From Escherichia coli (GTDB lineage: Bacteria; Pseudomonadota; Gammaproteobacteria; Enterobacterales; Enterobacteriaceae), in NCBI RefSeq assembly GCF_041248615.1, contig NZ_CP158426.1: a stretch of 64,000 nucleotides of DNA; one strand, given 5' to 3'. Under the pieces are notes generated by a model that searched no databases, was not told the DNA's origin, and saw only the letters and a program-made list of their open reading frames with translations. Made by a program: the position numbers and the translations under genes. This document shows, one piece after another, positions 36,454 through 47,231 of the stretch (its first letter is position 1; each line of letters starts with the position of its first letter).

Positions 36454-36692
36454 GAGGATATCCTTCAGCATAAATGTAATAGACAAAATGCAGTGTACCG
36501 GATACCGCCAAAAGCGAGAAGTACGGGCAGGTGCTATGACCAGGACTTTTTGACCTGAAGTGCGGATAAAAACAGCAACAATGTGAGCTTTGTTGTAATT
36601 ATATTGTAAACACATTGCTAAATGTTTTTACATCCACTACAACCATATCATCACAAGTGGTCAGACCTCCTACAAGTAAGGGGCTTTTCGTT

Positions 36693-39137
36693 ATGATGAT
36701 TTTGAGTATTCTCGCTACGGTTGTCCTGCTCGGCGCGTTGTTCTATCACCGCGTGAGCTTATTTATCAGCAGTCTGATTTTGCTCGCCTGGACAGCCGCC
36801 CTCGGCGTTGCTGGTCTGTGGTCGGCGTGGGTACTGGTGCCTCTGGCCATTATCCTCGTGCCATTTAACCTTACGCCTATGCGTAAGTCGATGATTTCCG
36901 CGCCGGTATTTCGCGGTTTCCGTAAGGTGATGCCGCCGATGTCGCGCACTGAGAAAGAAGCGATTGATGCGGGCACCACCTGGTGGGAAGGCGATTTGTT
37001 CCAGGGCAAGCCGGACTGGAAAAAGCTGCATAACTATCCGCAGCCGCGCCTGACCGCAGAAGAGCAAGCGTTTCTCGACGGCCCGGTAGAAGAAGCCTGC
37101 CGGATGGCGAATGATTTCCAGATTACTCATGAGCTGGCTGATTTGCCGCCGGAGTTGTGGGCGTACCTTAAAGAGCATCGTTTCTTCGCGATGATCATCA
37201 AAAAAGAGTACGGCGGGCTGGAGTTCTCGGCTTATGCCCAGTCTCGCGTGCTGCAAAAACTCTCCGGCGTGAGCGGGATCCTGGCGATTACCGTCGGCGT
37301 GCCAAACTCATTAGGCCCGGGTGAGCTACTGCAACATTACGGCACTGACGAGCAGAAAGATCACTATCTGCCGCGTCTGGCGCGTGGTCAGGAAATCCCT
37401 TGCTTTGCACTGACCAGCCCGGAAGCGGGTTCCGATGCGGGCGCGATTCCGGATACCGGGATTGTCTGCATGGGCGAATGGCTGGGCCAGCAGGTGCTGG
37501 GCATGCGTCTGACCTGGAACAAGCGTTACATTACGCTGGCACCGATTGCGACTGTGCTTGGCCTGGCGTTTAAACTCTCCGACCCGGAAAAACTGCTGGG
37601 TGGCGCAGAAGATTTAGGTATTACCTGTGCGCTGATCCCGACCACCACGCCGGGCGTGGAAATTGGTCGTCGCCATTTCCCGCTGAACGTACCGTTCCAG
37701 AACGGACCGACGCGCGGTAAAGATGTCTTCGTACCGATCGATTACATTATCGGCGGACCAAAAATGGCCGGGCAAGGCTGGCGGATGCTGGTGGAGTGCC
37801 TCTCGGTAGGCCGCGGTATCACCCTGCCTTCCAACTCAACCGGCGGCGTGAAATCGGTAGCGCTGGCAACGGGTGCGTATGCGCACATCCGCCGTCAGTT
37901 CAAAATCTCTATTGGTAAGATGGAAGGGATTGAAGAGCCGCTGGCGCGTATTGCCGGAAACGCTTATGTAATGGATGCTGCGGCATCGCTGATTACCTAC
38001 GGCATTATGCTCGGTGAAAAACCTGCCGTGCTGTCGGCTATCGTTAAGTATCACTGTACCCACCGCGGGCAGCAGTCGATTATTGATGCGATGGATATCA
38101 CTGGTGGTAAAGGCATTATGCTCGGGCAAAGCAACTTCCTGGCCCGTGCTTACCAGGGCGCACCGATTGCCATCACCGTTGAAGGGGCCAACATTCTGAC
38201 CCGTAGCATGATGATCTTCGGTCAGGGGGCGATTCGTTGCCATCCGTACGTGCTGGAAGAGATGGAAGCGGCGAAGAACAATGACGTAAACGCGTTCGAT
38301 AAACTGCTGTTCAAACATATCGGTCACGTCGGTAGCAACAAAGTTCGCAGCTTCTGGCTGGGCCTGACGCGCGGTTTAACCAGCAGCACGCCAACCGGCG
38401 ATGCCACTAAACGCTACTATCAGCACCTGAACCGCCTGAGCGCCAACCTCGCCCTGCTTTCTGATGTCTCGATGGCTGTGCTGGGCGGCAGCCTGAAACG
38501 TCGCGAGCGTATCTCGGCACGTCTGGGGGATATTTTAAGCCAGCTTTACCTCGCCTCTGCCGTTCTGAAGCGTTATGACGACGAAGGCCGTAATGAAGCC
38601 GACCTGCCGCTGGTGCACTGGGGCGTACAGGATGCGCTGTATCAGGCAGAACAGGCGATGGACGATTTACTGCAAAACTTCCCGAACCGCGTGGTTGCCG
38701 GGCTGCTGAATGTGGTGATCTTCCCGACCGGACGTCATTATCTGGCACCGTCTGACAAGCTGGATCATAAAGTGGCGAAGATTTTACAAGTGCCGAACGC
38801 CACTCGTTCACGTATTGGTCGCGGTCAGTACCTGACGCCAAGCGAGCATAACCCGGTTGGTTTACTGGAAGAGGCGCTGGTGGATGTGATTGCCGCCGAC
38901 CCGATTCATCAGCGGATCTGTAAAGAGCTGGGTAAAAATCTGCCATTTACCCGTCTGGATGAACTGGCGCACAACGCGCTGGCGAAGGGGCTGATTGATA
39001 AAGATGAAGCCGCTATTCTGGTGAAAGCTGAAGAAAGCCGTCTGCGCAGTATTAACGTTGATGACTTTGATCCGGAAGAGCTGGCGACGAAGCCGGTAAA
39101 GTTGCCGGAGAAAGTGCGGAAAGTTGAAGCCGCGTAA
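36693..39137 (+). CDS. fadE: Acyl-CoA dehydrogenase FadE
   Basis: 814 aa from [20 protein letters not shown], matching E. coli FadE. Confidence 0.95.
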
Positions 39138-39179: not shown

Positions 39180-39653
39180 TTATTTAAAATTAAAGCCATC
39201 CGGATGGTTTTCCAGGCTGCCGGTCAACGCCGCGAACAGCACCGTTTTACCATCAATCGAAAGCGCATCGTTCACATTCAACCAGGTGAGTTTCTCTTGC
39301 GACGTTTTCTCATCAATAGTCGAGAATAGCCCCGTCATCTGATTAGATTTCGCGGACCACATCACAGCGATACGTTGCGAGCCACAATCATGCGGTTTGC
39401 ACGCGCTCATCACCTGATACGTCTCATCTCCCAACGTTACGGTTTGTGCGGGAGTATAAGTACCGCCTTTCATCACCCATGCAGGTAGCTTATGCCCTTG
39501 CACCATCTGATTAAACGCAGCTTTGGTGGTTTCGCCCTTTGCAAGGCTGCTAATGGTTAAATCATCCTGCGCCATTGCACTGGTGGCGATGACCAGAGCG
39601 GCAACTGTCGTTATTGCCTTAAACATCATTCCTCCCGAGCTTATCCTGCCCAT
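39180..39653 (-). CDS. ivy: Inhibitor of vertebrate lysozyme Ivy
   Basis: 157 aa; MGRISSGGMMFKAITTVAALVIATSAMA signal and CKPHDC motif, matches E. coli Ivy. Confidence 0.95.
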   Translation of the reverse strand: MGRISSGGMMFKAITTVAALVIATSAMAQDDLTISSLAKGETTKAAFNQMVQGHKLPAWVMKGGTYTPAQTVTLGDETYQVMSACKPHDCGSQRIAVMWSAKSNQMTGLFSTIDEKTSQEKLTWLNVNDALSIDGKTVLFAALTGSLENHPDGFNFK

Positions 39654-39806: not shown

Positions 39807-40577
39807 GTGTCTGGTTTGAAGATTACGCTTTTACAGCAACCACTGGTGTGGATGGATGGTCCTGCCAACCTGCGTCATTTTGATCGTCAACTGGAAGGTA
39901 TTACCGGACGCGATGTGATCGTTCTACCGGAGATGTTTACCAGCGGCTTTGCCATGGAAGCGGCAGCTTCGTCGCTAGCACAAGATGACGTAGTGAACTG
40001 GATGACAGCCAAAGCGCAGCAGTGCAATGCGCTGATTGCAGGCAGTGTTGCATTACAAACGGAGTCTGGTTCGGTTAACCGCTTTTTGCTGGTTGAGCCG
40101 GGCGGCACGGTACATTTTTATGATAAGCGTCATCTGTTCCGCATGGCAGATGAGCATCTACATTATAAAGCGGGCAATGCGCGAGTGATTGTGGAATGGC
40201 GCGGCTGGCGTATTTTGCCGCTGGTGTGCTACGACTTACGTTTTCCGGTGTGGTCGCGCAATCTCAACGATTATGACCTCGCCATCTACGTTGCCAACTG
40301 GCCTGCTCCGCGCTCTCTGCACTGGCAGGCATTGCTGACGGCCCGCGCGATTGAGAATCAGGCGTATGTGGCGGGATGCAATCGCGTCGGCAGCGATGGC
40401 AACGGCTGCCATTATCGCGGTGACAGCCGGGTGATTAATCCACAGGGCGAGATTATCGCTACTGCCGACGCGCATCAGGCAACGCGCATTGATGCGGAGC
40501 TGTCGATGGTGGCATTGCGGGAATATAGAGAAAAGTTTCCGGCATGGCGGGATGCGGATGAGTTTAGGTTGTGGTGA
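39807..40577 (+). CDS. yafV: Nitrilase-superfamily omega-amidase YafV
   Basis: Start set to GTG 39807 (AAGGAG 9 nt upstream); catalytic Cys context LPLVCYDLRFP; matches E. coli YafV. Confidence 0.9.
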   Translation: MSGLKITLLQQPLVWMDGPANLRHFDRQLEGITGRDVIVLPEMFTSGFAMEAAASSLAQDDVVNWMTAKAQQCNALIAGSVALQTESGSVNRFLLVEPGGTVHFYDKRHLFRMADEHLHYKAGNARVIVEWRGWRILPLVCYDLRFPVWSRNLNDYDLAIYVANWPAPRSLHWQALLTARAIENQAYVAGCNRVGSDGNGCHYRGDSRVINPQGEIIATADAHQATRIDAELSMVALREYREKFPAWRDADEFRLW

Positions 40578-40671
40578 GTGGGTGTTGTGTTTAGGGGCGG
40601 GGTAAGACTACGGGTCAGGGCAAGATTACGAAAGCCCGGAGCCTGTCCATCATTCTGTGTAAATGCCTTTC

Positions 40672-40990
40672 TCAGAAGTGACCGTCAAGGCGGTCACCGA
40701 ACTCGATAATAAAGCGACTCTTCCCTATCCGCCAGTCCTGAAGTGGCATCGTCCATTTTTGCGACGCTGACTGGAAAGCCAGCCACACCACTTTTTTCAC
40801 CGACTCATCTGTCGGGAACACTTTCCGTTTCTTTATCGCATGTGTGATGATGCTATTCAGCGATTCGATTGCGTTAGTGGTGTAGATAACCTTGCGGATC
40901 GCCTCCGGGTACACGAAGAATGTGGCAACATTCGGCCAGTTTGCCCGCCAGCTGCGACTTATCTGCGGGTACCGTGCATCCCATTCCTTC
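40672..40990 (-). pseudogene. IS256-family (mutator-type) transposase, C-terminal fragment only
   Basis: Encodes ..ANWPNVATFFVYPEAIRKVIYTTNAIESLN...KWTMPLQDWR.. which matches only the last ~105 aa of IS256-like transposases. Confidence 0.6.
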
Positions 40991-41001
40991 CCAGGGAAAG
41001 A

Positions 41002-42119
41002 TTACGAAAGCCCGCTCCCCGCAAGGACTGACGCCAGATAGTTTCTGTCCATGGCTGCTTTTCGCATCTTACGTCTTAACCCTGCCTTGAATACCTTATC
41101 ATTCGTCAAAATATTAATAGCGATGTGCCGTATCCCTGAAAATAATTCTGCTGCATTTCCTCTTCTTATTTTGCAGTCGTCTTCATTCATTACCACGTCC
41201 AGACGCCAGTGCAGCTTATTCTCCACGTGCCAGTGGTTTCGGATTGCTGTGGCGAACTTCTCTGCGGTTAAATCAGCAGAACTAATATAATATCTGACCG
41301 TCATTTCTGGCTCTTTCTTTTGTTCTGCTATTATTGACCGAAAGGAGACTGCCACGCATAATTTCTTCAGACCTTTCCATTCAAACGTGAAATCAATAAG
41401 TTCATCAGGGACATCGCAAACAATGTGAAGACGGATTTCTTCTCTGCCGTGACTCTTTTCACTCATTGCGTAACTGTCATGCTCTGGATTATTTAATTCT
41501 TTCAGCGGAAATTCTCGAAGGCTTTATTTAGCCGCCCCTGGTTTCCTTTTACAGCGAATAAATAATCACCTCCCTGTTTTTGTATCTTCTCTGCAATATC
41601 TTTCTGGCAACCCATCGCATCAGTTGTGATGATTTTTCCTTTAATATCCAGCATGTTAAGAAGTTCTGGGATAGCTGTAATTTCATTGGATTTCTCATCC
41701 GTCCTGATCTGTCCGATGACCAGACTGTGCATTGTTGAGAACGCACTAATGACATGAATCGCTCCCTTGCGGCGACTCTTGTCATAAGAATGCCGGAGTG
41801 TTTTTCCATCAATTGCGATGACGTCTTTATCATCTGAAGTATGGCAATCTCGCATCCAGTTAATAAAGCACTCGTGAAATTTTGCAGGACTGATACAGGA
41901 TACAACTCTGGCGATGGTATCGTGAACAGGAATACCATTTTCAAAATCACCGTATTGTTTTAAAAAATCGAGATGTGTTTCCCCAAAATCCTCTATATCT
42001 TCCCAACCTTCCGCACCCGAAATAACAGCACAAATAGTCAACAGTAGAATATCCGATAATTTATGTTCCACTTTCCAGGCTTGTCTGTAATCGGGGATAA
42101 TAGAAATATGCCCCATCAA
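41002..42119 (-). pseudogene. ISAs1-family (H-repeat-associated) transposase, frameshifted
   Basis: Two ORFs (41502-42119 and 41002-41466) cover N- and C-terminal parts; reading continues in another frame across 41466-41505 ([15 protein letters not shown]), showing a small deletion near KAFE|NF. Confidence 0.75.
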
Positions 42120-42306
42120 TTTTTTAAGTTCTATTTTGTTCTCCTTAATTATGTAAGGAGTATTTGATCATGTATAAGCAATAAAAAACAGCTTTAGGTA
42201 ATGAGGAATATCTCAATTTTTAAGCATAAAATGCGAATTGTTTAGTACAAAAAAGCAGCGTTACGTGATCTTTCCCTGCACTTCACCCTAACTTTAATTT
42301 AACTTC

Positions 42307-42346
42307 AAGAAGTATTAAGGCCTCAATAGCGAACTTAATACTTCTT
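42307..42346 (-). terminator. AT-rich hairpin downstream of Rhs immunity gene (weak terminator candidate)
   Basis: aagaagtattaag-N14-cttaatacttctt perfect 13-bp inverted repeat. Confidence 0.3.
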
Positions 42347-42354
42347 AAAGAATA

Positions 42355-42732
42355 TCACTCCTGACCAAAATCTTTCCACACTAATGCATGAGACTTTGAT
42401 TTATCACCCAAAAATTTACTTACATCTTTCCAAAGTAAAGAATTGCTATCGGTCGCAGTGACTATTGCCTCTATAAGCCCTGTAGCTACAACTGTGGCCA
42501 ATTCATCATCAATCGAGACCATACCATCTTCGACATGTTTAAATATTTTTTCTCTTTCAATATCACCCATTTCATAAAAATTTTTTACAATCGTTTTTCC
42601 AATCTGAGAGAACAACATAACCACCGGTGGAGTTTCTGGATGCCAGTATTCATTAGCTAATGAGACTGTCTCAGACAAAACAGTGGAAAACGATGCCATT
42701 TTTTCTATATAATTAGCAATATATTGGTTCAT
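42355..42732 (-). CDS. Putative immunity protein for the Rhs C-terminal toxin
   Basis: 125 aa AT-rich ORF immediately downstream of the rhs stop; family not recognised. Confidence 0.55.
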   Translation of the reverse strand: MNQYIANYIEKMASFSTVLSETVSLANEYWHPETPPVVMLFSQIGKTIVKNFYEMGDIEREKIFKHVEDGMVSIDDELATVVATGLIEAIVTATDSNSLLWKDVSKFLGDKSKSHALVWKDFGQE

Positions 42733-45700
42733 TACTTGCCTCCCAAAGCATTCTGTAAATCCTGAAGAACGTTTTCTGCTGCTGCTCGATCCCCTGGAGA
42801 TGCTGTTGGATTCTTATCCAACCAATCCTGTAAAGCCCTTGTATAATCCTGTGCTTTCAATACATGTCCTCTACCACCAACTTTTTCACCTGTGGCCAAT
42901 TCATAACGAACAGCATCTGCTGTGCTTCCACTTCCTACTTTTGCATTTGGCCGATAAAGATCGTCTATAATATTTTTCAAATTTGAATCTGTAACGTCAG
43001 GTTTTCCCATCTTCTGTCGCAATTCATCTTTATACCGTTCATGCTGCATACGATCTCTTGCGCTATTCTCATCTTCTGGTCCCCATCCTCCCGGGCTTCC
43101 CGTACTGCCACCACCCAGGCAGTTCTTCTCTTCCTCCGTCAAATCCTTCCCGACATTTGGATTCTCTTTTGATGAATCATCATTTCCAAACACGCTGGAA
43201 AAAGCACCATAGGGATCTCGCCAGAATTCCATTTGACTTTGTGCATTTAATAATTCGGCTTCACCCTGCATCTCCATACTTTTCTCAATCGCGTCCCCAA
43301 CAGCCTCGCGATTGTTGTATATTATTATACCACCACCAATAACCACCGTACCGACTGCCGCACCGACTAACATCCCCGGAGGGCCTCCTACCGAACCGAT
43401 CTCTGTACCTACTTCAGAACCAGTTCCCATGGCAGTTAATGCTCCTGCGCCCAACGCCGCACTTAATCCCAGCGGATCCAGCCGTTGCACCGGGTTCAGT
43501 GGATACGCATACAGGTTCCATCCCCCCTTCAGCCCAATCGGATCCTGGGTGATATACCTCCCCTGTAGCGGGTCATAGTACCGGTGACGGTTGTAGTACA
43601 GCCCCGACTCCTCATCATACTGCTGCCCCGGCAGACGGAGTGACTGTTGAAGGTGCTGCGTGCTTTCCTCTCCCAGCAGGTTTCCCCACTCGTCATACTC
43701 CCCGCGCCACGCCGTTTCCCCTTCCGGGCTGATAAGCGCCTGCGGCAGCCCACGGTGGTCACAGTGGTAAAGATGAAGTTTCCTCTCCGGGATGTATTCC
43801 GCCTCCAGTTGCGCCGCCATCTGTTCCGCCGTCAACCCACACTGTGCAAGCCACTGCTGGCTTTCTTCACTCACGCTGCCCTGCCGCAGTTCCCGCTCCA
43901 GCCTCCCCAGCATCACCGCCAGCTCCGCCGGTAGCGTCACACCCGTGTCCTCCTGCAACACCTCCGCCAGGCTACGGTGCCGCGCCTTCGCCTGTTCGCC
44001 ATTCTCTGTTTCGATTCTCAGGAGCGGCGTGAAGCTCCCCGGCTGGTATACCGTCTGGATACGCGTGGTGTCGGTCTGTACCGTCGTCAGCCTGTCGCCG
44101 TCCCACCCGTACCAGGTCACCTCCGGTTTACGCGACAGCGACATCCACCCCGTCAGGTCACGCTCCCGCCGCCACACCCGTTTTCCCGTCCGGCGGCCCA
44201 GCGGGTCATAGAGGTAGCGGCTCTCCACCTGTGGCTCGCCGTGCTGTATCCGCGTGTAGAACACCAGGCGGTGCTGGCTGTCGTAATGGTAGTGGTGCGT
44301 CCGCTCGTCGTGCATCCGTATCACCCCTTCCGGGATACGGTCCGTCTTCTCCGCCAGCCTGCCGTATTCATCGTAGCGGTAGACATAGTGCGCATCTTCC
44401 GTGATGCGGTTATCCGGCCACGCCGTGAAGGTGCTGTCCGGGTGCAGTTCCGGGTCCGGCAGCCGGTTTCCTGCCGGGTCCGTCGCATACGGGATATCAA
44501 TGTCCAGGTTCGCTGCCGTGGTGTGGACGCCCGTCAGCCTTCCCGTGTCGCTGTAACGGTACTCCCGGCTCTCCTGCGGGCCGCTGATGCGAATTAGCTG
44601 TCCGTTGTCGTTCCAGTCGTAGTCACGGTCAAGCTGCGGAAGGTTCAGGTGCCTGCTCCGGAGCTGGCCGCTGGTATTCCAGGCGGTGGCAAGCTCATAT
44701 GCCTCCCCGCCGAAGCTGCGGGCCGTCTCACGGTGCAGCCGGTCCCGCGTGTACTCGACCAGTGGCGTACCACCCAGCTTCATTCCCGCAAGATAACCGC
44801 TGCCATACGTCAGCCACTCCACCGGCGGCAGACCGTCCGGCTCCTGACGGGTCGCCAGCCCCTGTTCGCTGTACGCGTGCTTCGTCTCATGCTCCCACAG
44901 CATCTCCCCCGTCTCCGGGTTCTCCACCGTCTGCCGTTCGCCCGTCAGGCGGCCTTTATCGTCGTGGCCGTAGTGGACCGCCACACGGTGGCCTTCGCTG
45001 ATATGGCTGATTTCTGTCAGCCAGCCGTGCTCATCATACTGCCACTGCTCCGCCGGGTCGCCGTTCACCGTCCGGTGCGTGATGCGGTCCGACGCATCGT
45101 AATGCCAGAGGGTGATAAGCCCCTCATCTTCACTCTGCGTGAGTTTTCCGGTCAGGTCATAGTGGTAACGTTGCGTCCGCCCGTCAAAGCCGCGCTGCTC
45201 CGTCAGCCTGTCCACCGGGTCATACCGGAACGTGGACTGGCTGCCGTTCTCGTTGGTCAGCACGGTGGTGCGACCGGCGGCGTCATACCCCATGCTGCGC
45301 GTCAGTCCGCCTTCCGTCACACTCACCGGACGCCCGCGTTTATCATATTCGATGGTGCTGCGTTTACCGTCCGGTGATATCGTCGCTGTCAGGTCGCCTG
45401 CGGTGCTGTACTCATAACGGGTTTCACGCCCCTGCGCATCCTTCTGACTGACCAGTTGGCCACGCGGGTTATAACTGCTGTAAGTGCTGATGCCTTCTTC
45501 CCGGTGAACGGCGATTTGTTGACCGTACCGGTCATACTCATACCGCGTCGTGTACCCCGAGCAGTCCGTAAACGCCTGAAGCTGACCGTACCGGTTTCGC
45601 GTTATTCTCCGCATCACCCCGGTTCCGTCTTCCACCGCGCCGGGCAGGCTACTGCGGGGGGAGTCATAAAACCAGCGCGTAATGTTACCGTTGCGCGAGA

Positions 45701-47231
45701 TCTCTTCCGCCAGCCTGCCCTGACGGTCATATTTCCGGCTGCTGCGCAGCCCGTCCGGGTACGTCACTGACGTCAGTTGCAACTGGTTGTTGTAACCATA
45801 CCGTACCGTCCTGCCGTCCGGAAGTATCACTGAAGTCAGCTTTCCAGACGCCATATGCAGCCGATACTCCGTCCGCCGTCCCGCCGCATCCGTCTGCGCC
45901 TTCAGCCTCCCCGCCTCATCATACTCGCTGCGGGTGATGCTCCCGTCCGCATGTTCCTTCTTCACCACCCGCTTCAGGCCACCTTCGCCTTCCGTGTACA
46001 GCACCTCCCGCCTGTTCAGGCTGTCCGTGATGATTACCCGGCTCTCTCCGTACTCAAAGCGGTAGTCCAGCCCCTCCGGGTTGACCTGCTCCGTCACCCG
46101 GCCGGTATCATCATACCGGTAGCGGCTCTCCGGCCTCCCCGCATAATGGTGCGCCACCATCCGCCCGGCGTGCGCCACATCATAAGTAACCCCGCGCACC
46201 TGCGTCCCGCTGCGGTCATACACCGCCCGCAGTTCTCCGCTGGCCGTGTACGTGTAGCGCGCCAGCGGCGCAGTCGGCTGTTCATCCGGGTATGCCGGGT
46301 CGTGTGTCAGCCACACCGCCTCCAGCCGGATACCGTTATCGGCACCGTATTCTGTACCGACGGGCAGCGTATCGGGGAAAACCTGAGAAGAGGAAACAGA
46401 ACGGGGACCGGCAGGGGAAGATAAGGAAGACTCGCGCTGTTTACGGGACGCTTCCGCCCGCTGTGACTGTGTGGTCAGCGCCAGGTGAAAACAGCGGCCC
46501 GCGCCGTCCGTCACCCTGGTGATTTCACCAGCCAGTTCGCCTGCGGCCTCGCGGTGGAAAGTCAGTGAACGCCCGAAGCCGTCCACCACGCCCGTCAGCA
46601 CCCGGTATGCGGGTGGCTCCGGCGGCAACACCTCGTCCACCCCCGGCACCCGCTCCGGCCAGCCGAGTACCAGCCACTGCCCGGTTGTGCTGACAGCCAT
46701 CATATAGGTGTGTGGACTCAGGCGGACCGCTTCCGGCAACGCCCGCCAGAGCCGGGCCAGCGGGTGGCCTTTCTGCTGTTTCAGCACCCCGCCCCGCGCC
46801 AGCCAGAACGACTCGCTGCGGCTGTAGCTTATCTCGCCGGGAAACAGCGGCTCAAAGTGAATGCTCCTGCCGCCGCTGTCGTTGAGTATCAGGCCTTCAT
46901 CGCGTATCTGTAAGCGGATATCGAAGGGGGCTTTCCAGCCGGGACCAAACACCCCCACCGGCGCGGGCGTCCTGGTCCGGTAGCTGCTGTAGGCGCGGAA
47001 AAGAACAAACGGCAGCGGGCCGGACAGTGCCAGGTCGGTTTCAGCAGGCAGCACCTTCGCTCCCAGCAGCGGGTTTACCGGATTACCCTTCTGCTCCTCT
47101 ATCGGGCTGTTGGGACATACCGAACAGGCCACACCGGTTGGCGCACCTATCAGCACCCCTGCTGAACCCTGCACAATATCCAGTCCCTTGCGGGTCATGT
47201 CACCCTGCCGCGCCGCCGGTTTTCCACCCAT
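42732..47231 (-). CDS. rhs: PAAR-domain Rhs repeat protein with polymorphic C-terminal toxin domain (T6SS effector)
   Basis: 1499 aa; N-terminal [15 protein letters not shown] motif, YD repeats, DPxGL demarcation (RLDPLGL) then ~243-aa tip; tip (42735-43463) is markedly AT-rich relative to the core. Confidence 0.9.

Follow-up and report, generated by a model that had tools for sequence, protein, structure and literature searches.

The region analysed here is a 64-kb stretch of Escherichia coli chromosome (the window), in which the core genes fadE (36615-39137), ivy (39180-39653, minus strand) and yafV (39807-40577, plus strand) lead up to the Rhs end of a type VI secretion system (T6SS) island. 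The last core gene ahead of the island, yafV, encodes 2-oxoglutaramate amidase, as indicated by a match to the Pfam family CN_hydrolase (E = 5e-33) and by the RefSeq label in the complete genome NZ_OW967178. On the island side lies a gene for an Rhs core protein of 1499 aa (42732-47231, minus strand), followed by VgrG. Directly downstream of the Rhs gene, and overlapping it, is a small ORF (42355-42732, minus strand) that we presume to be an immunity gene; its match to Pfam DUF7674 is weak and sub-threshold (20.7 bits against a cut-off of 27). The interval between yafV and this ORF is filled by pieces of two insertion sequence (IS) families, the ISAs1-family H-repeat (H-rpt) and an IS256-family element, and is very probably a non-functional nest of IS remnants at the point where yafV meets the Rhs end of the aspV T6SS island.

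NZ_OW967178 is 100% identical to the window across 40400-42400 and supplies an annotated gene order for the surroundings: yafV, transposase (incomplete), ISAs1 family transposase (frameshifted), hypothetical protein (the immunity-like ORF), RHS core protein, VgrG, Hcp, tssB...tssM, ykfM, a yafT-like gene, tRNA-Asp and dnaQ. The IS debris accordingly lies between yafV, a core gene, and the Rhs/VgrG end of the island, whose opposite end is at tRNA-Asp, and the reading of the debris as the yafV-proximal boundary of the T6SS island, put forward in an earlier note on this DNA, is borne out by the run of genes from yafV through Rhs and T6SS to tRNA-Asp. The aspV type VI secretion island itself has already been described (PMC2808357), and an Rhs element is listed in the b0215-b0221 interval of E. 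coli W (PMC3032704). We additionally observed an inverted repeat (42303-42350; 17-nt arms, 94% complementary, 14-nt loop) in the gap that separates the left end of the H-rpt from the stop of the ORF following rhs; it may be a transcription terminator of the rhs operon. A simple terminator scan made no terminator call at this repeat. The promoter and terminator scan of 40400-42800 as a whole stayed at background, with 7 sites resembling promoters (4.8 expected) and 3 resembling terminators (2.0 expected).

Insertion-sequence remnants between yafV and rhs

The layering of the interval is most easily read from a 17-mer, AAGATTACGAAAGCCCG, of which the 64-kb window holds exactly two copies (40622-40638 and 40998-41014). 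Both sites had been given in the earlier note and both are exact; the 17-mer has no match in 100 dinucleotide-preserving shuffles, and 0 copies are expected by chance. Its length had been understated, as the similarity really spans 23 nt, a single mismatch included (CAGGGCAAGATTACGAAAGCCCG at 40616-40638 versus CAGGGAAAG... at 40992-41014). The second copy indeed encodes the C terminus of an ISAs1-type transposase: the last codons and the stop (41002-41004) fall within 40998-41014, and the protein ends ...AGSGLS*. Because this copy also pairs, as an inverted repeat, with 42254-42278, the 23-nt repeat can be assigned to the terminal inverted repeats of a 1287-bp element; by sequence, it belongs to an H-rpt of the ISEc1 type (ISAs1 family), of which it forms the right terminal inverted repeat.

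The first copy had been called an orphan H-repeat tail, and comparison with ISEc1 upholds this. An intact 1291-bp ISEc1 in another genome (L011) starts with CAGGGCAAGATTACGAAAGCCCG; because the orphan (40616-40638, plus strand) is identical to this right end in 23 of 23 positions, it is a genuine H-rpt right end, comprising nt 1-23 of the element and cut off by the end of the IS256-type element. In strain 19KM1776, this tail is longer and measures 57 nt.

The two copies stand immediately on either side of the IS256 fragment, the arrangement expected of a duplication, and might thus be taken for a chance match or for a target-site duplication left by a single insertion of the IS256 piece. We consider this extremely improbable. 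The 17-mer is absent from all shuffled sequences, and the 23 nt are exactly the terminal repeat of ISEc1 and pair with the other end of the element. The length is also wrong for a duplication, the one clear ISEc1 duplication seen in this comparison being 10 bp and those made by IS256-family elements 8-9 bp, not 23. Finally, the IS256 piece is truncated, retains one end only and could not have transposed alone. The genuine H-rpt end is the reading that we retain.

The earlier note had further counted an 'atggacag' upstream of the tail as sequence shared by the two H-repeat copies. This extension of the H-rpt homology was rejected: the motif (40643-40650) corresponds to nt 5-12 of the IS256 terminus and therefore lies inside the IS256 terminal repeat, which is found in unrelated contexts, and its offset from the repeat differs between the two places (5 nt versus 30 nt). 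From its position, the match is coincidental.

Printed junction sequences of other strains drew attention to another short element on the yafV side. A 15-nt relic, CGGGGTAAGACTACG (40598-40612, plus strand), lies 3 nt ahead of the orphan end and matches the canonical H-rpt right end, CAGGGCAAGATTACG, in 12 of 15 positions. It equals the first 15 nt of a degenerate H-rpt end found at the same distance from yafV in SMN013SH2, WG5::PA8 and LHM10-1; 13 of its 15 positions match K-12, where its alignment with K-12-type junctions is ambiguous. The relic may be a third, older H-rpt end in the stack, of ambiguous orthology.

Sandwiched between the two 23-nt copies, 40639-40991 (minus strand) is the terminal 353 bp of an IS256-family element that measures 1313 bp at full length elsewhere, as identified by Pfam, alignment and RefSeq. 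The fragment keeps an intact outer terminal repeat (GAGCCTGTCCATC...), and its pseudo-CDS (40672-40989) holds the last ~105 transposase codons in a frame with no internal stop, matching Transposase_mut (PF00872) with E = 3e-18 over profile positions 299-377 of 379; this agrees with the earlier description of the interval as containing only the end of an IS256-family transposase. With 353 of 1313 bp present, about 960 bp are missing, and RefSeq labels the fragment 'transposase, incomplete, missing N-terminus'. Its inner boundary is ambiguous by 1 nt, the C at 40992 fitting either element.

The outer boundary of the fragment is a genuine IS terminus. In alignments with two plasmid copies, homology sets in precisely at 40639 (GAGCCTGTCC...), and the DNA outside this point is unrelated; at the inner side, the homologous sequence of the plasmid copies carries on beyond 40991, where the window changes to the H-rpt end. 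The same onset of homology, at GAGCCTGT..., is seen in pH9, in pECC-1470, at a second Rhs locus and in LHM10-1, with different flanks in each, and the terminus GAGCCTGTCCATC recurs in unrelated contexts. LHM10-1 carries a full-length, 1313-bp IS256-family element with matching inverted ends and this same outer terminus. The 1313-bp copies thus share their terminal repeat with the window fragment, which retains their last 353 bp only. Every other copy examined, including those that RefSeq labels IS256 family, is 95-96% identical to the fragment, and the Transposase_mut C terminus with its YTTNAIESLN motif is shared with IS1414 and with unnamed IS256-family elements on E. coli plasmids and chromosomes; to IS1414 itself, the identity is just about 83%. 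At a different Rhs locus (L012, NZ_CP195454.1, 3001-4796; L015, NZ_CP019273.1), we observed about 505 bp of the same IS256-type element abutting an H-rpt left end in the opposite orientation. Because the two elements abut at this second Rhs locus as well, IS256-type and H-rpt sequences are repeatedly seen joined within Rhs elements.

Next to the fragment lies a complete ISAs1-family H-rpt of the ISEc1 type (40992-42278, minus strand, 1287 bp), recognised by its inverted repeats and by global alignment to the 1291-bp ISEc1. The terminal inverted repeats have 25-nt arms (40992-41016 and 42254-42278) that are 80% complementary. Against a copy that RefSeq labels 'ISAs1-like element ISEc1 family transposase', 43 of about 1290 alignment columns differ, the divergent left-end indel region included, corresponding to about 97% nucleotide identity with RefSeq-annotated intact ISEc1. 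Terminal repeats, the 1.29-kb size and the DDE_Tnp_1_assoc plus DDE_Tnp_1 architecture are those of H-rpt/ISEc1 in the ISAs1 family; the copy occupies the same chromosomal place beside yafV as yafF of K-12 and is Rhs-associated, like the H-rpts described for Rhs elements (PMC3032704). It departs from canonical ISEc1 in a 4-bp frameshift, an ATA in place of the ATG start, the lack of a target-site duplication, a mosaic sequence and a left terminal repeat of a variant type (AGCAGCGTTACGTGATCTTTCCCTG) that is common to a few other copies at the locus.

No target-site duplication surrounds the complete H-rpt, its flanks CATTCCTTCC and CACTTCACCC being different. A genuine ISEc1 insertion makes a duplication of 10 bp; the window copy must therefore have been rearranged later, and its membership in the family stands. 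The duplication was observed in strain 13E0725 (L008, NZ_CP020092.1, 3379-4688), where an ISEc1 copy is nested in a different ISAs1-family element and bounded by a perfect 10-bp direct repeat, TGTTTAACGC, which is sequence evidence of genuine H-rpt/ISEc1 transposition.

The mosaic divides the element into two parts. From 40992 to 41552, it is 0.4% diverged from canonical ISEc1 at another locus; from 41553 to 42253, the divergence is 3.6%, and the adjoining variant left terminal repeat is common to other copies at the yafV locus. The left half is nearest to the 19KM1776 copy at this locus (2.4% divergence). The contrast between the two parts is significant (Fisher p = 4e-5) and shows sequence exchange between H-rpt copies of two lineages. 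Nucleotide 6 of the complete H-rpt is A, as in the MEI003 copy and thus of the resident type, and C in the canonical element; because the right end is of the resident type at this position, a gene-conversion patch would account for the mosaic just as well as a crossover between two H-rpt copies that made the deletion.

The H-rpt transposase pseudogene

The transposase gene of the complete H-rpt is a pseudogene (41002-42134, minus strand), split into two ORFs (41502-42119 and 41002-41466) by a 4-bp deletion between 41513 and 41514. Both parts are recognisable as transposase: the first matches DDE_Tnp_1_assoc (PF13808, E = 8e-34) and DDE_Tnp_1 (PF01609, E = 2e-17), the second the C-terminal part of PF01609. 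In comparison with the intact 1291-bp ISEc1, the missing 4 bp turn ...NKAFEEKFPLKE... into ...NKAFENFR*, and RefSeq labels the gene 'frameshifted' in the 100% identical genome, so the element lacks the intact frame of an autonomous one. The frameshift that the earlier note had reported in the main H-repeat gene is thus confirmed.

Could the frameshift, or perhaps the whole junction, be an artefact of sequencing or assembly? The deletion does fall in a stretch rich in A/T homopolymers (AAATTTTTCC), but a loss of 4 bp is atypical of homopolymer error. The deleted sequence recurs in 102 independently assembled complete genomes (at least 99% identity over 91 bp), with the undeleted form as the next identity class after these 102 records, and the junction itself is present in 245-259 complete genomes. 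We give an artefact practically no credence; as the same deleted sequence is found in 102 records, the frameshift is real. Its age is a separate matter. The sister genome EC16 has the same junction, with 9 differences in 2.4 kb, lacks the deletion and is annotated with an intact transposase; the open ISEc1 transposase of the sister lineage is WP_024192499.1. Because EC16 keeps the frame open behind the same junction, the frameshift is a recent event within the sublineage and not, as the earlier note had placed it, part of the old layered record. In the window lineage and in EC16 alike, the codon at the canonical start position is ATA instead of ATG (T at 42132, plus strand), and the 'intact' status of the EC16 copy may, given this start, be optimistic. 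An in-frame ATG is seen six codons downstream of the ATA.

Alleles of the yafV junction across E. coli

A large proportion of E. coli carries an ISAs1-family H-rpt beside yafV: in 30 of 60 rows, sampled at even spacing from a ranking of 5,790 matching records, an ISAs1 transposase is the neighbour of yafV and the IS256 piece is absent. The junction of the orphan end with IS256 is found in 259 of 5,426 complete E. coli genomes, and 245 genomes have the window allele with both junctions (at least 80% coverage of 40400-41300). In this allele, a tail of 23 nt is followed by 353 bp of IS256 and then by the full H-rpt. Genome comparison reveals at least five structural alleles at the yafV junction. 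In MEI003 and 2012C-4221, the tail is likewise 23 nt, followed by 8 nt of IS256 and a full H-rpt; in 19KM1776 (about 5 genomes), a tail of 57 nt precedes 77 nt of IS256 and an intact H-rpt; and in LHM10-1 and 6EVA (about 9 genomes), a K-12-type tail of 40 nt precedes the full 1313-bp IS256, followed by DNA other than H-rpt. K-12 has lost the island (gene order aspV-yafT-ykfM-yafU-yafF-yafV) and retains 280 bp of this H-rpt in the same place, the pseudogene yafF, which shows 6 differences relative to the copy in the window. One end of the K-12 island deletion was observed inside the H-rpt, at about nt 290 (L005 2247-2879 versus window 41003-41282), where yafF is joined to yafU/ykfM. The H-rpt left junction (42278/42279) has a different left flank in every allele examined; with the left flanks differing in all alleles, it is the IS ends that are fixed and the joined DNA that varies, and the left junction does not tell the models of origin apart.

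The IS256 end meets the right end of the H-rpt at nt 23, 40 or 57 (window 40638/40639; L016 ~4609/4610; L013 ~2575/2576), at a spacing of exactly 17 nt and in one orientation, and the nt-57 join falls within CTGT|CCAT, a motif similar to the IS256 terminus GAGCCTGTCCAT. This spacing and resemblance could be coincidence or a target preference. Two IS256 terminus variants, CCATC and TTTACC, occur at these junctions. The IS fragments have diverged by 4-5%, against 0.6-2.7% for the yafV coding sequence, which is compatible with old, vertically inherited debris.

These alleles bear on the question of whether the pieces came together once or several times. Tails of 23, 40 and 57 nt and two terminus variants may reflect independent insertions and not nested deletions from one event. 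Taken further, this would mean repeated independent insertion guided by preference, with IS256 favouring the H-rpt right end (nt 23, 40 and 57) and H-rpt favouring IS256 (at nt 8, 77, 353 and about 505). Such a history gains weight from the three distinct tail/IS256 junctions in constant orientation, the two terminus variants, the terminus-like CTGT|CCAT at the 19KM1776 join and the different Rhs locus at which an H-rpt left end stands in opposite orientation against the interior of the same IS256-type element. Against it, target-site duplications survive around none of the copies; MEI003 shares the tail-23 junction with a shorter IS256 stump, most simply explained by deletion from a window-like state; and a fragment divergence of 4-5% versus 1-3% for yafV fits one old vertical insertion. 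On balance we think repeated independent insertion unlikely, if credible enough to be kept in mind. A broader version of the idea, in which the yafV border is a site where the two ISs repeatedly target each other's ends and is thus more than passive debris, strikes us as rather improbable. If it were true, the supposedly inactive H-rpt/ISEc1 would still be transposing, and deletions anchored at its ends would be eroding the T6SS/Rhs island as in K-12.

Proposed succession of insertions and deletions

We favour a non-functional nest of remnants built up by successive insertions and deletions, and the comparison of genomes, with its five or more structural alleles, supports the layered history that the earlier note had proposed. 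Its fixed points are the junctions: the intact outer terminus of IS256 directly follows an orphan H-rpt end of 23 nt, and the 353-bp remainder of IS256 runs without a gap into nucleotide 1 of a complete H-rpt. From these we infer the sequence of events and, for its third step, the mechanism. An H-rpt would first have come to lie beside yafV, the ancestral state suggested by the sampled rows with an ISAs1 transposase next to yafV and by the yafF remnant of K-12, and an IS256-family element would then have transposed into the right end of this H-rpt. In the third step, a complete H-rpt end would have been joined to the IS256 interior in one of two ways: a second H-rpt transposed into IS256 and then recombined homologously with what was left of the first, or the transposase made an adjacent deletion starting at the H-rpt end. 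By either route, about 960 bp of IS256 and the rest of the first H-rpt would have been removed. The surviving H-rpt would later have swapped sequence with another ISEc1 copy, giving the mosaic, and a recent 4-bp deletion in the sublineage would have broken the transposase.

Flush joins at H-rpt nucleotide 1 in three alleles argue for transposase action over random breakage in the third step. The intermediate predicted by this scheme, in which a full IS256 would split one H-rpt in two and be bordered by an 8-9-bp duplication, occurs in no genome examined. Searching for it with a chimeric query, composed of the window junction and the continuation of the IS256 element, retrieved the LHM10-1-type genomes, in which a full IS256 lies beside yafV with DNA other than H-rpt on its far side; no target-site duplication surrounds the full IS256 in LHM10-1.

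Features of this kind are known: each component can be placed in an established family, and both pseudogenes are already present in the RefSeq annotation. Nested IS 'graveyard' clusters are commonplace at genomic-island borders, and adjacent deletions anchored at IS ends are known. The yafV border shows the same pattern as such clusters, with IS ends conserved and the joined DNA varying by strain. Nor does it differ in kind from IS-end-anchored deletions: in K-12, the island is entirely gone, and one end of the deletion lies within the H-rpt. That the flush deletions here were transposase-mediated is suggested by the junction positions only. No present function is expected of the nest, which is probably a scar of past events on which further recombination can act.

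Taken alone, the arrangement has little significance. It is a stable structural marker, with the recent 4-bp deletion as a sub-marker, of a single E. coli lineage accounting for about 4.5-4.8% of the complete genomes, and it documents how ISs have reshaped the Rhs end of the aspV T6SS island, which was finally lost as in K-12. For the H-rpt family, transposition is stated as not observed in a genome paper (PMC3032704); in contrast, the 10-bp duplication and the joins flush with nucleotide 1 are sequence-level evidence that H-rpt/ISEc1 elements have transposed.
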